From Escherichia coli (GTDB taxonomy: Bacteria > Pseudomonadota > Gammaproteobacteria > Enterobacterales > Enterobacteriaceae): DNA of 64,000 bases. The notes beneath the pieces are model-generated. The model did not search any database. It was given only the letters and a program-made list of their open reading frames with translations, and was not told the DNA's origin. The position numbers and the translations under genes were made by a program. This document shows positions 1 to 6,579 of the stretch, piece after piece. The stretch lies in assembly GCF_046105845.1 (NCBI RefSeq), contig NZ_CP151004.1, one strand, 5' to 3'. The number at the start of each line of letters is the position of its first letter. Position 1 is the first letter of the stretch.

Positions 1-156
1 GCTAAATTAGCCACCGAACTGGCCTTGCAGGGGGCAGCAGGCAATATTGATCCGCGTGCCAGCCACTGTTTTATGCCGACGTTAGTGCGTCGTCATTCTG
101 TCGCAACGCGCCAGAATGCGGCGGCGATCACTAACTCAACAAATCTGGCGATGTAA
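1..156 (+). CDS. galS: 3' end of galS (LacI-family repressor), partial
   Basis: Open frame running to TAA at 154-156 translates ...[22 protein letters not shown]; sits immediately upstream of mglB as in E. coli. Confidence 0.75.
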
Positions 157-166
157 CCGCTTTCAA
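151..166 (+). promoter_or_regulatory. GalR/GalS operator of the mgl promoter
   Basis: ATGTAACCGCTTTCAA matches the GTGNAANCGNTTNCAC consensus at 14 of 16 positions; centred 18 bp upstream of the CRP site; overlaps the galS stop codon. Confidence 0.5.
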
Positions 167-168
167 TC

Positions 169-184
169 TGTGAGTGATTTCACA
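169..184 (+). promoter_or_regulatory. CRP binding site of the mglBAC promoter
   Basis: TGTGA-GTGATT-TCACA, both half-sites perfect; a TATGAT -10 hexamer at 206-211 is at class II spacing. Confidence 0.7.
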
Positions 185-435
185 GTATCTTAACAATGTG
201 ATAGCTATGATTGCACCGTTTTAACGTTGTAACCCGTATGTAACAGTGAATAATCACTTTCACCGAGGTAATAGCGTCATAACAACAATTAAAGCCGTTT
301 TCTGGAGCGTTACCGGGCATGGAAGAACGAATTTTAAAAAGTGAGCTTCGGCGTTCAGTAACACTTCATTAACTCTACTGCCCCGCCGAGCATTTATCTC
401 AAGCACTACCCTGCATAAGAAAAACCGGAGATACC

Positions 436-1434
436 ATGAATAAGAAGGTGTTAACCCTATCTGCTGTGATGGCCAGCATGTTATTCGGTGCCGCTGCACA
501 CGCTGCTGATACTCGCATTGGTGTAACAATCTATAAGTACGACGATAACTTTATGTCTGTAGTGCGCAAGGCTATTGAGCAAGATGCGAAAGCCGCGCCA
601 GATGTTCAGCTGCTGATGAATGATTCTCAGAATGACCAGTCCAAGCAGAACGATCAGATCGACGTATTGCTGGCGAAAGGGGTGAAGGCACTGGCAATCA
701 ACCTGGTTGACCCGGCAGCTGCGGGTACGGTGATTGAGAAAGCGCGTGGGCAAAACGTGCCGGTGGTTTTCTTCAACAAAGAACCGTCTCGTAAGGCGCT
801 GGATAGCTACGACAAAGCCTACTACGTTGGCACTGACTCCAAAGAGTCCGGCATTATTCAGGGCGATTTGATTGCTAAACACTGGGCGGCGAATCAGGGT
901 TGGGATCTGAACAAAGACGGTCAGATTCAGTTCGTACTGCTGAAAGGTGAGCCGGGCCATCCGGATGCAGAAGCACGTACCACTTACGTGATTAAAGAAT
1001 TAAACGACAAAGGCATCAAAACTGAACAGTTACAGTTAGATACCGCTATGTGGGATACCGCTCAGGCGAAAGATAAGATGGACGCCTGGCTGTCTGGCCC
1101 GAACGCCAACAAAATCGAAGTGGTTATCGCCAACAACGATGCGATGGCAATGGGCGCGGTAGAAGCACTGAAAGCACACAACAAGTCCAGCATTCCGGTG
1201 TTTGGCGTCGATGCGCTGCCAGAAGCGCTGGCGCTGGTGAAATCCGGTGCACTGGCGGGCACCGTACTGAACGATGCTAACAACCAGGCGAAAGCGACCT
1301 TTGATTTGGCGAAAAACCTGGCCGATGGCAAAGGTGCGGCTGATGGCACCAACTGGAAAATCGACAACAAAGTGGTCCGCGTACCTTATGTTGGCGTAGA
1401 TAAAGACAACCTGGCTGAATTCAGCAAGAAATAA
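436..1434 (+). CDS. mglB: Galactose/glucose ABC transporter periplasmic binding protein
   Basis: 332-aa ORF with signal peptide; recognisable MglB sequence; followed by mglA and mglC. Confidence 0.97.
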
Positions 1435-1442
1435 GACTGATT

Positions 1443-1474
1443 GGGCGCAGTCGTTTGCTGCGCCCTTATTGTAT
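1443..1474 (+). terminator. Intercistronic hairpin between mglB and mglA
   Basis: GGGCGCAG-tcgtttg-CTGCGCCC stem-loop followed by a T-rich tract. Confidence 0.4.
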
Positions 1475-1494
1475 GGCCAACAAGGTAAAATTAT

Positions 1495-3015
1495 ATGGTC
1501 AGCTCAACGACTCCGTCTTCCGGAGAATACTTGTTGGAAATGAGCGGTATCAACAAGTCTTTTCCTGGTGTTAAGGCACTTGATAACGTTAATTTAAAAG
1601 TCCGGCCACATTCTATCCATGCATTAATGGGGGAAAACGGCGCAGGAAAATCAACATTATTAAAATGCCTGTTTGGTATTTATCAAAAAGACTCCGGCAC
1701 CATTTTATTCCAGGGTAAAGAGATCGATTTCCATTCTGCCAAAGAAGCGCTGGAAAATGGTATTTCGATGGTACACCAGGAGTTAAACCTGGTATTACAA
1801 CGTTCGGTGATGGATAACATGTGGCTGGGGCGATATCCCACCAAAGGCATGTTTGTCGATCAGGACAAAATGTACCGCGAAACCAAAGCGATTTTTGATG
1901 AACTGGATATTGATATCGATCCGCGTGCGCGCGTCGGCACATTATCCGTTTCGCAAATGCAGATGATCGAAATCGCCAAAGCGTTTTCCTATAACGCGAA
2001 AATTGTGATTATGGATGAACCGACTTCTTCGTTAACCGAAAAAGAAGTTAATCATCTGTTTACTATTATTCGTAAATTAAAAGAGCGCGGCTGTGGTATT
2101 GTTTATATCTCACATAAAATGGAAGAAATCTTCCAGTTATGTGATGAAGTTACCGTATTGCGCGACGGTCAGTGGATCGCCACTGAACCGCTGGCAGGAC
2201 TGACGATGGACAAGATCATCGCCATGATGGTTGGGCGTTCTCTTAACCAACGTTTCCCTGACAAAGAAAACAAGCCGGGCGAAGTGATTCTTGAAGTGCG
2301 TAACCTGACGTCGCTGCGCCAGCCGTCGATTCGCGATGTCTCGTTTGATCTGCATAAAGGGGAGATCCTCGGTATTGCCGGTCTGGTGGGGGCGAAACGT
2401 ACCGATATTGTTGAGACGTTATTTGGTATTCGCGAGAAATCGGCTGGCACTATTACGTTGCACGGCAAAAAGATCAATAACCATAATGCCAACGAAGCCA
2501 TAAACCACGGATTTGCACTGGTAACTGAGGAGCGCCGCTCAACGGGAATTTATGCCTATCTGGATATCGGTTTTAACTCGTTAATTTCCAATATCCGCAA
2601 CTATAAAAACAAAGTTGGCTTGCTGGATAACTCGCGGATGAAAAGCGATACCCAGTGGGTGATTGACTCGATGCGGGTAAAAACACCGGGTCATCGGACG
2701 CAAATTGGTTCGCTCTCCGGTGGTAATCAGCAAAAGGTGATTATTGGTCGCTGGCTACTAACGCAACCAGAAATATTAATGCTCGATGAACCGACGCGCG
2801 GTATTGATGTCGGGGCGAAGTTTGAGATCTATCAGTTAATTGCCGAACTGGCGAAGAAAGGCAAGGGGATTATTATTATCTCCTCTGAAATGCCTGAGTT
2901 GTTAGGGATAACAGACCGTATTCTGGTTATGAGCAATGGTCTCGTTTCCGGAATTGTCGATACAAAAACAACAACGCAAAACGAAATTCTGCGTCTTGCG
3001 TCTTTGCACCTTTAA
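1495..3015 (+). CDS. mglA: Galactose ABC transporter ATP-binding protein (tandem ABC domains)
   Basis: 506-aa ORF with two Walker A motifs (GENGAGKST and a second ABC domain). Confidence 0.97.
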
Positions 3016-3030
3016 GATTAGGGGCTTCCC

Positions 3031-4041
3031 ATGAGTGCGTTAAATAAGAAAAGTTTTCTTACTTACCTGAAAGAGGGCGGTATTTACGTCGTTCTTTTAG
3101 TTTTGCTGGCAATTATTATTTTCCAGGACCCAACATTTTTAAGTCTGTTGAACTTAAGTAATATTCTCACCCAGTCATCGGTGCGTATTATTATCGCGCT
3201 CGGTGTGGCAGGGTTAATTGTCACCCAGGGGACCGACCTTTCTGCAGGTCGCCAGGTGGGGCTGGCGGCAGTAGTAGCGGCGACGTTATTGCAGTCCATG
3301 GATAACGCCAACAAAGTGTTCCCGGAAATGGCGACGATGCCGATTGCGCTGGTTATTCTGATTGTCTGTGCCATTGGTGCGGTGATCGGTTTGATCAACG
3401 GCCTGATTATCGCTTATCTCAACGTGACGCCGTTCATTACCACGCTCGGCACGATGATCATCGTCTATGGCATCAACTCGCTCTATTACGACTTTGTCGG
3501 GGCGTCGCCAATTTCTGGTTTTGACAGTGGCTTCTCTACCTTTGCTCAGGGCTTTGTCGCGCTGGGGAGTTTCCGTCTCTCTTACATCACCTTCTACGCG
3601 CTGATTGCGGTGGCGTTCGTCTGGGTGTTGTGGAACAAAACCCGCTTCGGCAAGAACATTTTTGCTATCGGCGGTAACCCGGAAGCGGCGAAAGTTTCTG
3701 GTGTCAACGTCGGCCTGAACCTGCTGATGATCTACGCGTTGTCTGGTGTGTTCTATGCCTTCGGCGGGATGTTAGAAGCCGGACGTATCGGCTCTGCCAC
3801 CAACAACCTCGGCTTTATGTATGAGTTGGATGCTATCGCGGCGTGCGTGGTGGGCGGCGTATCGTTCAGCGGCGGTGTGGGGACGGTGATTGGTGTGGTG
3901 ACCGGGGTGATTATTTTTACCGTCATCAACTATGGCCTGACGTACATCGGCGTAAACCCATACTGGCAGTACATCATCAAAGGGGCGATTATTATCTTCG
4001 CCGTGGCGTTGGATTCACTGAAATACGCGCGTAAGAAGTGA
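3031..4041 (+). CDS. mglC: Galactose ABC transporter permease
   Basis: 336-aa polytopic membrane ORF directly after mglA. Confidence 0.96.
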   Translation: MSALNKKSFLTYLKEGGIYVVLLVLLAIIIFQDPTFLSLLNLSNILTQSSVRIIIALGVAGLIVTQGTDLSAGRQVGLAAVVAATLLQSMDNANKVFPEMATMPIALVILIVCAIGAVIGLINGLIIAYLNVTPFITTLGTMIIVYGINSLYYDFVGASPISGFDSGFSTFAQGFVALGSFRLSYITFYALIAVAFVWVLWNKTRFGKNIFAIGGNPEAAKVSGVNVGLNLLMIYALSGVFYAFGGMLEAGRIGSATNNLGFMYELDAIAACVVGGVSFSGGVGTVIGVVTGVIIFTVINYGLTYIGVNPYWQYIIKGAIIIFAVALDSLKYARKK

Positions 4042-4057
4042 TGTGATTGTGGGTATT

Positions 4058-4106
4058 GCCGGATGCGTCGCATCCGGCAATCGGTGCCAAATGCCGGATG
4101 CGTCGC
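4058..4106. repeat. REP/BIME palindromic units between convergent mglC and preA
   Basis: GCCGGATGCGTCGCATCCGGC perfect palindrome at 4058-4078 and a second partial copy at 4093-4106. Confidence 0.7.
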
Positions 4107-4111
4107 TGGTT

Positions 4112-5347
4112 TTACAACGTTACCGGGTGTTCTTTCTCTCCCTTCTTAAACTTCACTTCTCCGAGATCAATACAACCCACCGGGCAGACGTGACCACAAA
4201 GCAGGCAACCAACACATTTCTCGGTATTACAATGCGGTGTACGGGTTTTCTCGCTCCATTCCATCGCCTGGTGACCGCCGTCGTAACAGGAAATATAACA
4301 GCGTCCACAGCCAACACATTTATCAAGATTGATATGGGGATAGACAATATAACTGCGGTCTAAATCTTCCGCGGGAACAATATTGTGATTCGCCAGACCT
4401 ACCATTTCCTGCAACGAATCAAACCCCTGATCGGCAAGATAATGTGACAACCCGCTCGCCATATCTTCCACTATCCGATACCCGTACTGCATAATGCCGG
4501 TGGTCACCTGCAACGTCGCTGCACCGAGCAATAAAAACTCTGCCGCATCTTCCCAGGTTTCAATACCGCCGATACCGCTGATCGGGAAATCGCGCAGCTC
4601 TGGATGGGTGCGCATTTGCTGAATAAAGCGCAGGGCGATCGGTTTTACCGCTTTACCGGAATATCCGGAAATACTCGATTTACCGTTAACGATCGGCATA
4701 CCGATTTTCTGATTAAGATCGATATTGGTGATGGATTTAACGGTGTTAATCGCCGCAATGCCATCTGCGCCGCCGCGCTTCGCCGCCAGCGCCACTTCGC
4801 ACATATCACCGATATTCGGCGTCATCTTCGCCAGCATTGGCAGCGTGGAACCACGTTTTACTGCCCGACAATATTTTTCTACCAGCTCCGGGCTTTGCCC
4901 GACATCGCTACCCATCGCATGAGAAGTCATTTGCGGACAGGAGAAGTTACACTCGATCATATCCGCGCCAGCTTCTTGCACCAGACGCGCCAGCTCTTCC
5001 CATTGCTGCTCATTTTCGCCCATGATTGAAGCGATCAATACTTTGTCCGGGTAATCTTCTTTCAGCCGACGCAGGGCGGCCAGATTATCTTCCAACGGAT
5101 GTTCAGCAATCTGCTCCATATTTTTGAAGCCGATAAAACCGGTATCTTCTTTCACCAGATGATCAAAACGCGGTGAGACTTCGTTGGCGATAAAAAAGCC
5201 GATCGTTTTAAACACCACGCCGCCCCAGCCAGTGTCGTAGGCTTTGGCACACATCTCATAGCAGTTGCCTACCGGCGAAGAAGAGAGGCAGAACGGGTTG
5301 GGAAACTTCACGCCGCAAAAAGTAATCGAAAGATCTTTCGTTAACAT
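4112..5347 (-). CDS. preA: NAD-dependent dihydropyrimidine dehydrogenase subunit PreA (Fe-S, DHODH-like)
   Basis: ORF with C-terminal 4Fe-4S ferredoxin cysteine clusters; start chosen at [10 protein letters not shown] to give 411 aa; overlaps preT stop. Confidence 0.92.
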
Positions 5348-6579
5348 GAGCAAGCTCCCTCTAAATAATGATGAATCGCCTCGGCGGCTTCTTTCCCGGT
5401 TTTCACGGCATAGACCACGGTTTTGTCACCCTCAACAATATCGCCAGCAGCAAAGACTTGCGGGTCGCGGGTCTGGTAATTTTGTGTATTGATGGTGTTA
5501 CGCTGCGGCTCTAACTCCGCAAAGGCATCCAGTCTGGCATGCTGACCGACGGCGAGAATAATTTTATCTGCCGCCATCGTCAGTTCGCCCGGTAACCGTA
5601 CATGCTTAAACGTGACTTTATTGCCTTCCACGGCTACTGGCGTGAATCCATCAATGATCGAAACGCCCAGCTCCCGGGCGCTGGCAAACTCTTTTTCGCT
5701 TGCCGGAAACTCATCTAACTCTTCACGCGCTACGCAAGTTACTGCCTGACAGCCGAGAACTTTCAGCGTGCTGGCTACGTCCATCGCGACATCACCGCCG
5801 CCGATAATTAATGCGCTTTGTGGAATGCTGATATCGCCTTGCGCCTGTCGTGCACGTTGCAAGAAGTCGACGGCAATCTCAACGTCGCTATGCTCAAACA
5901 GTGGTAGCCCCGAACCGCTCGATAACCCCACGGTGACCAGTACCGCGCGGTTTTCCGCTTTCAGCTGCTCCAGGGTGAGTGTTTTACCGATTTCGTTATT
6001 GCACTTAATGGTCACGCCCATTTTTTCAATACGGGCGATTTCTGCATCCAGTACTGATTGCGGTAACCGGAATTGCGGAATGCCGTTACGCAACCAGCCA
6101 CCGGCTTGTGCTTCTTTCTCATAGATCGTGACGTCATAACCCTGGTTTGTCAGTGTCACACTGGCCTGCAATCCGGCAGGACCCGCGCCAATAATGGCGA
6201 CTTTGCCGAGCGTTTTAGTACCGGGTTGATAAATTTCCATCCCAGTTTGTTGTTCAAAATCAGTAACAAAACGCTGTAAGCGACCGATATCAATGGGAGT
6301 ATCAACACCGGCACGGGTACAACCGCTTTGGCATAATTTCTCCGTCGGGCACACTCTGGCACAAACGGCACCGAGGGCATTATTTTCACGAATTGTCTCG
6401 GCAGCGCCTTTAAAATTACGAAAGTAGATTGAGCGAATAAATTTCCCCGGATCGGTCTGTGCCGGGCAAGCCTGACTACAGGGAGCGTCATGACATAATA
6501 AGCAGCGAGAGGCTTCTTTAATCGCCAGTAAAGGCGTAAAAGCCGGAGTGAGTTCATCCAGATAATTTTGTTGCGGCAT
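5341..6579 (-). CDS. preT: Dihydropyrimidine dehydrogenase subunit PreT (FAD/NAD-binding)
   Basis: 412-aa ORF with GAGPAG dinucleotide-binding motif and N-terminal Fe-S cysteines; upstream partner of preA. Confidence 0.92.

Follow-up and report, generated by a model that had tools for sequence, protein, structure and literature searches.

A conserved hairpin in the mglB-mglA spacer of Escherichia coli at a mapped 3' end of mglB mRNA

In Escherichia coli a short G+C-rich hairpin in the spacer between mglB and mglA forms the 3' terminus of an abundant mRNA that carries mglB alone, and comparison of related spacers indicates that this hairpin is under selection. We analysed it in a stretch of E. 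coli DNA of 64,000 nucleotides (the window), whose positions are used throughout unless genome coordinates are given. An initial annotation, made from the letters of the window, had proposed that a hairpin followed by a T-rich tract could act here as a partial terminator or as a 3' structure that stabilises the mRNA, and so raise the binding protein relative to the transporter subunits. The kind of element is textbook, and its 3' end in K-12 already stands in a public table. Among the explanations weighed below we lean, with modest confidence, towards leaky intrinsic termination, with the hairpin also protecting the mglB mRNA once it is released.

The mglB-mglA junction and its hairpin

Positions 1-4041 of the window hold the end of galS and the mglBAC operon (Table 1). 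RefSeq names the proteins at the junction galactose/glucose ABC transporter substrate-binding protein MglB and ATP-binding protein MglA, and a 301-nt stretch across the junction was matched in 5,425 of 5,426 complete E. coli genomes. The spacer of 60 nt (1435-1494) runs from the mglB stop codon TAA (1432-1434) to the mglA ATG and reads GACTGATT GGGCGCAGT CGTTT GCTGCGCCC TTATTGTATGGCCAACAAGGTAAAATTAT. The block GGCCAACAAGGTA, which contains the mglA Shine-Dalgarno sequence, is kept by most of the 80 related loci, with variants such as GACCGAAAGGTA and CAGCCAGGTA. In the centroid fold the Shine-Dalgarno sequence is unpaired, so the hairpin does not sequester it. An upstream ATG at 1473 was rejected as a start codon; it is out of frame with mglA, lacks a Shine-Dalgarno sequence and is not conserved across other genera. 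No sigma-70-like match that could serve as an internal mglA promoter was found on the plus strand near 1400-1495. Right after the mglC stop codon lie two REP-like palindromic units (4056-4105), GCCGGATGCGTCGCATCCGGC (4058-4078) and GCCGGATGCGTCGC..., whose joint fold has a free energy of -29.6 kcal/mol.

Table 1. Coordinates of the genes and RNA features at the mglBAC locus in the window
Feature	Coordinates	Strand	Description	Evidence
mglB	436..1434	+	periplasmic galactose/glucose-binding protein, 332 aa; first gene of the operon	ORF; matching RefSeq annotation under E. coli; 80 orthologous loci
Hairpin	1443..1465	+	5' arm GGGCGCAGU (1443-1451), loop CGUUU (1452-1456), 3' arm GCUGCGCCC (1457-1465)	fold; covariation
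Interrupted U tract	1466..1474	+	UUAUUGUAU (DNA TTATTGTAT); 6 U in 9, broken at positions 3, 6 and 8	
mglA Shine-Dalgarno	1482..1485	+	AAGG, 9 nt 5' of the ATG, within block GGCCAACAAGGTA	sequence; spacer conservation
mglA	1495..3015	+	ABC ATPase, 506 aa	ORF; RefSeq annotation
mglC	3031..4041	+	permease, 336 aa; last gene of the operon	ORF

The hairpin begins 8 nt past the mglB stop codon and consists of 9 bp, seven of them G-C pairs, closed by a 5-nt loop, with a folding energy of -16.8 kcal/mol. Its perfect 8-bp arms, GGGCGCAG (1443-1450) and CTGCGCCC (1458-1465), enclose 7 nt, and a U.G pair (1451.1457) adds the ninth base pair; the initial annotation had given the spacer coordinates exactly and the arms GGGCGCAG-N7-CTGCGCCC correctly. 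Dinucleotide shuffles averaged -6.6 kcal/mol and none of 200 was as stable (z = -4.9), and in mononucleotide shuffles of the spacer the best perfect hairpin averaged -3.4 kcal/mol, with none of 50 reaching -16.8 kcal/mol. The minimum free energy of the whole 76-nt region is unremarkable (z = -1.78), and the structural signal is thus the local hairpin and not a larger fold. The hairpin is also the top terminator-like match in positions 1-6000, where such matches are overall only about twofold more numerous than in shuffles.

The tract that follows fits the earlier description as T-rich only loosely, in that TTATTGTAT does hold six T in nine positions and is interrupted at three of them. Four of the first five bases of the tail are U, and it passes a lenient terminator scan. 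The stem and loop lie within the range for the G+C-rich stem-loop of an intrinsic terminator (about 5-14 bp, with a loop of 3-8 nt). For the U-rich tract of such a terminator about 7-9 nt directly behind the stem are expected. The element passes the structural tests for an intrinsic terminator, except for a clear-cut U tract.

Several other identities were considered for the element. We rejected a dispersed or REP-type repeat, since the 64-kb window contains a single copy of the motif, against 0.04 expected, and a search that allowed 2 mismatches brought up no other. A terminator for an antisense transcript was likewise set aside; the fold of the minus strand is equally stable, but the tail on that strand (AAUCAGUC) does not qualify as U-rich, and there is no convergent gene with its end at this place. 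An RNase III site was also dismissed, as a 9-bp stem is too short for this enzyme and the published RNase III site of the operon lies in mglC. Searching positions 1-6000 with the covariance models of Rfam 15 (E <= 1) returned nothing in the spacer and three matches elsewhere, all at the level of chance.

RNA 3' ends and protein output in K-12

RNA 3' ends of E. coli MG1655 were mapped by Term-seq by Adams et al. 2021 (PMC7815308), whose supplementary file 1 lists a 'primary' mglB 3' end at 2239314(-), with an average of 147,960 reads in LB at OD 0.4 and 77,439 at OD 2.0. This end corresponds to position 1470, 5 nt past the stem, 36 nt past the stop codon and inside the U tract, so that the RNA ends in ...GCGCCCUUAUU-3', the evidence being from MG1655, whose loop differs from that of the window allele. 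The register of the 61-nt strings in that table (50 nt upstream, the 3' end and 10 nt downstream) was verified on thrL, and the offset was checked at the mglB stop codon. Among the six ends that the table gives for the mgl strand between 2240498 and 2236360, the hairpin end is the largest. The others have, in LB at OD 0.4, 92,182 reads (mglB leader), 24,034 reads (inside mglA), 38,353 reads (inside mglC) and, downstream of mglC, 51,513 and 23,751 reads (PMC7815308). The reads at the hairpin about equal the sum of those at the four downstream ends, a comparison that is a crude guide to stoichiometry. Glucose shuts the mgl operon off, and in this way we read the absence of the hairpin end from glucose minimal medium. 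The sheet for that medium does not list it (PMC7815308).

In the bicyclomycin experiment of the same study none of the three mgl genes has a listed Rho termination region, and the nearest one lies downstream of the operon at 2236028; the 3' end inside mglA has a Rho score of 0.91 and is scored 'No' (PMC7815308). The authors caution that Rho sites are under-detected (PMC7815308). Mapping of 3' ends had been suggested at the outset as the check on the hairpin, to be read against the alternative of no 3' ends there; the published K-12 data place an end directly at it. The element also has the arrangement of a 3' stabiliser, in that the upstream cistron, the more abundant of the two, ends in a stable stem-loop. 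Term-seq cannot separate termination from processing followed by exonuclease trimming.

Three further ends on this strand deserve mention. The first, an 'orphan' 3' end at 2240498 (window ~286), sits between galS and mglB, 150 nt ahead of the mglB ATG, with a Rho score of 0.44 and an intrinsic-terminator score of 1.47. It probably falls inside the long mglB leader, the target region of Spot 42 and Hfq, and is probably a processing product. The end at 2237260 in mglC (window ~3474-3524) is that of a candidate ORF-internal sRNA, 'mglC int', in Adams 2021 (PMC7815308), which is probably made from an internal promoter of its own. The end with 51,513 reads, at 2236530, lies in MG1655 within a REP element downstream of mglC, where the REP content is unlike that of the window.

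Protein output was assessed from the absolute protein mass fractions in Dataset EV8 of Mori et al. 2021. All three Mgl proteins were detected in 27 samples, and from these we derived molar ratios. The median MglB:MglA ratio was 21 (range 10-37) and the median MglB:MglC ratio 15 (range 8-38), while MglA:MglC was about 0.9. These data bear out the expectation that the binding protein is made in excess of the transporter subunits, by about 15-21-fold in molar terms over MglA and MglC. This molar excess could be largely translational.

Conservation of the stem and variation of the U tract

A scan for MglB with one genome per species yielded 80 Enterobacteriaceae loci at a protein identity of at least 92%, or 81 with the window added. 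mglA follows mglB in every locus, across spacers of 60-249 nt, and 79 of the 81 spacers contain a perfect hairpin of -12 kcal/mol or better (median -14.9 kcal/mol). Shuffles of these spacers averaged -3.8 kcal/mol, and in 71 of the 81 loci the observed value was unmatched by any of 50 shuffles. An outer stem GGGCG...CGCCC is common to 71 of the 81 spacers. The distance from stop codon to stem has a median of 17 nt over the 81 loci (range 6-143) and is largest where the spacer has an insertion or a different hairpin.

Covariation was examined in an alignment (A1) of 47 distinct sequences, in which the five outer pairs are fixed by the selection rule and hence uninformative, while the inner pairs were not selected. 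In this alignment 95.8% of the cells of the 9-bp helix are paired, and compensatory changes occur at three inner pairs (C-G/U-A/U-G; A-U/G-C/G-U; A-U/C-G/U-A/G-C). The covariation score was 0.30 against 0.13 in column shuffles, none of 500 of which reached the observed value, and sliding the partner gave at most 0.085. RNAalifold independently predicts the same helix.

The spacer was found in 5,418 of 5,426 E. coli genomes, 44 of which have the exact allele of the window and most of the others one that differs by 1-3 nt. The four E. coli alleles seen (those of the window, of two of the related loci, L001 and L002, and of MG1655) differ in the loop and inner stem and keep the pairing. The loop and inner stem (1449-1459) appear more variable than the flanks, with flanking coding DNA 97-99% identical, and the alleles include a double compensatory change, CAG/CTG to CAA/TTG. 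In the window allele the loop-closing pair is U.G and not U-A.

Among the loci without the shared core, Trabulsiella, the loci L064 and L067, Cedecea L069 and Buttiauxella L080 carry unrelated GC-rich hairpins. Kluyvera (L035) has the core stem with a one-base variation, TGGCGCAC...GTGCGCCA. In Raoultella (L056, L065) and Enterobacter sp. 10-1 (L070) the stem, CGGGCG...CGCCCG, is split by a loop insert of about 70 nt or more; the insert region of L056 (3500-3620) folds at -47.2 kcal/mol (z -4.9), and the hairpin of these loci is predicted to be a long composite structure. Two Citrobacter loci (L021, L043) have an insert of roughly 125 nt past the mglB stop codon and ahead of the hairpin, in a spacer at about 3500-3690. 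Judged by the ERIC core (...CCTGGGGATTCAC), this insert is a putative ERIC/IRU-like element. Buttiauxella L080 has a similar insert, yet its GC hairpin is unrelated.

Six more distant Enterobacterales were also compared. Pantoea has a textbook terminator, GGGCACAGC-GAUA-GCUGUGCCC followed by U6, likewise 8 nt past the stop codon. Strong hairpins without a U tract were found in Morganella (11 bp), Erwinia (15 bp) and Hafnia (12 bp), and long spacers with imperfect hairpins in Yersinia and Rahnella.

The tail is less constant than the stem; 5 or more T in 8, a lenient threshold, was reached by only 25 of the 81 loci. The stem is followed by UUUUAUAAC in Enterobacter and by UUAAUAAC in Citrobacter, and essentially no U tract is left in Klebsiella (GAUUAUUCC), in Salmonella enterica subsp. 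arizonae (L042; UGAAACUG), which keeps the hairpin, or in Kluyvera, where the flanking TATA pairs into the stem. The weighted T scores were 3.5 for Enterobacter, 2.9 for the window, 1.6 for Klebsiella and 0.4 for Kluyvera, compared with 4.2 for Pantoea and 5.1 for a perfect U8; the score follows the style of d'Aubenton-Carafa and serves only to rank the tails, without a threshold. The subsp. arizonae spacer (3500-3632) additionally holds a REP-like element, GCGGATAAGG...CATCCGGCA, ahead of mglA, an arrangement of hairpin and REP-like element that resembles malE-malF.

As judged from these sequences, selection keeps the stem and not the U tract. In the lineages without a U tract the conserved hairpin cannot be a canonical terminator, and there it must protect the 3' end after cleavage or Rho-dependent termination, the situation reported by Dar and Sorek (PMC6061677). 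The function shared across lineages may be protection.

Termination, protection and the excess of binding protein

In the reading towards which we lean, a fraction of RNA polymerases would terminate intrinsically at the hairpin and interrupted U tract, leaving an RNA end at about 1470, and the remaining polymerases would read through into mglA-mglC. The ribosome that terminates on mglB close behind the polymerase could interfere with folding at the base of the stem, and the hairpin would guard the released mglB transcript against 3'-to-5' exonucleases. The net result would be more mglB message than mglAC message, which would contribute to the roughly 15-20-fold excess of binding protein. For the E. 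coli allele we favour leaky termination together with protection on account of the strong stem, the four U among the first five bases of the tail, the position of the in vivo end within the tail and the lack of any detected Rho dependence. Termination would be only partial because the U tract is imperfect and the stem starts 8 nt after the stop codon. From these observations we infer that the 3' end originates by termination rather than by processing, that the ribosome takes part and that the hairpin has a share in the protein ratio.

In the work of Li et al. (PMC4824070), a terminator placed a few bp past a stop codon lost almost all of its activity to the terminating ribosome, and termination efficiency was maximal only beyond about 30 bp from the stop codon. 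The 8 nt between stop codon and stem at mgl fall inside this roughly 30-bp zone of reduced termination; unlike the mglB element, the tR2 position series of that study is a synthetic reporter with a strong terminator (PMC4824070). In the searchable literature we found no termination efficiency for the mglB hairpin, in vitro or from a reporter.

Two routes to an excess of binding protein were described by Miyakoshi et al. 2015 (PMC4474525), namely selective stabilisation of a monocistronic first-gene mRNA against decay from its 3' end, as for malE, or, as between gltI and gltJ, a Rho-independent terminator that leaks. In gltIJKL of Salmonella and E. coli, as in mgl, the binding-protein gene opens an ABC-transporter operon and a conserved hairpin lies in the first spacer. 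There the hairpin is a leaky Rho-independent terminator that is also the 3' end of the sRNA SroC; a monocistronic binding-protein mRNA is produced, as at mgl, and the membrane and ATPase genes need read-through (PMC4474525). In contrast to gltI-gltJ, the U tract at mglB is weaker and less conserved and termination is a proposal, and no evidence for an SroC-like sRNA from the 3' end of mglB was found in the literature searched. The REP stabiliser between malE and malF in malEFG shares with mgl a stable 3' stem-loop and the selective accumulation of the promoter-proximal binding-protein mRNA (PMC8081044; PMC4474525). Unlike it, the mglB hairpin is single, short, unique and not a REP or BIME, and its partial U tract makes termination possible. 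In the hairpins of Rho-dependent transcripts (PMC6061677), a precise steady-state 3' end directly follows a stable hairpin, as it does at mgl, which fits the relatives without a U tract; the mgl tail of E. coli, by contrast, is U-rich, and no Rho region was detected in mglA (Adams et al.).

Protection without termination is a serious rival account of the same 3' end, though a less likely one. Polymerase would nearly always read through, and an endonuclease would cut the mglBAC mRNA further downstream, possibly RNase E within AAAAUU (1487-1492), an A/U-rich stretch ahead of mglA. Trimming by exonucleases as far as the hairpin would then give a stable mglB mRNA and let mglAC decay, which is the malE-malF mechanism without a REP sequence. 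The conservation pattern speaks for it, as the hairpin is conserved and the U tract is not, as unrelated GC hairpins without any U tract have been substituted in L064/L067, L069, L080, Morganella and Erwinia, and as S. enterica subsp. arizonae has an additional REP element in its spacer. Moreover, stalling of an exonuclease would likewise yield a 3' end 5 nt from the stem, and for ABC-transporter operons the literature names selective stabilisation of the first cistron as the common route (PMC4474525; PMC8081044). However, the tails of E. coli, Enterobacter and Pantoea are U-rich enough for the terminator scan, the cleavage and the 5' end next to it are hypothetical at mglB-mglA, and the mechanism does not exclude termination. 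The 'primary' Term-seq end at 1470 and the conserved, covarying hairpin thus uphold the original proposal of a partial terminator or 3' stabiliser and do not single out either alternative.

Rho-dependent termination inside a poorly translated mglA, followed by exonucleolytic trimming to the hairpin, seems to us improbable. Dar and Sorek 2018 (PMC6061677) showed that Rho-dependent transcripts end just past stable stem-loops without U tracts, and a ChIP-chip study, as far as it is cited in PMC7863352, put Rho-dependent terminators within mglA and mglC. Against this, Adams et al. list no significant Rho region in the three mgl genes, and the mglA-internal end, at 0.91, was scored 'No'. That the palindrome arose by chance and is neutral, or is a DNA-level or mobile REP/BIME-like repeat with no role in expression, would not surprise in enterobacterial intergenic DNA, where short GC palindromes are common, and in a region where terminator-like matches are twofold above shuffles overall. 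But the motif is single in the window and unlike the REP-like palindromes after mglC (GCCGGATGCGTCGCATCCGGC), the spacer is present in nearly all E. coli genomes (5,418 of 5,426), compensatory changes keep the helix across genera and a strong RNA 3' end maps there. Covariation and the mapped 3' end effectively refute this last reading.

A more speculative extension of leaky termination, which we consider unlikely, is that read-through is set by how closely the lead ribosome trails RNA polymerase, so that the spacer would be a translation-sensing attenuator inside the operon. If so, a ribosome at the mglB stop codon would open the base of the stem so that the polymerase could pass, and uncoupling, for instance by repression of mglB translation by Spot 42 and Hfq, would raise termination and lower mglAC further. 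Spot 42 acts on mglB at the 5' UTR (Holmqvist et al. 2016), and mglB is also repressed by UhpU.

No dedicated study of the mglB-mglA hairpin was found in the literature searched, the results of which were dominated by mglA and mglB of Myxococcus and Francisella. The older mgl sequence papers of Scholle (1987) and Hogg (1991) may already mention the dyad symmetry. The hairpin poses no challenge to current understanding. It would explain, for one well-studied sugar transporter, how a single promoter gives about 15-20 times more binding protein than membrane and ATPase subunits. It also offers a comparative example in which a hairpin is kept by compensatory change or replaced while its U tract drifts between canonical, weak and absent. 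As far as the compared spacers can tell, this pattern suggests a constant need to protect the 3' end and a strength of termination that may be tuned from lineage to lineage.
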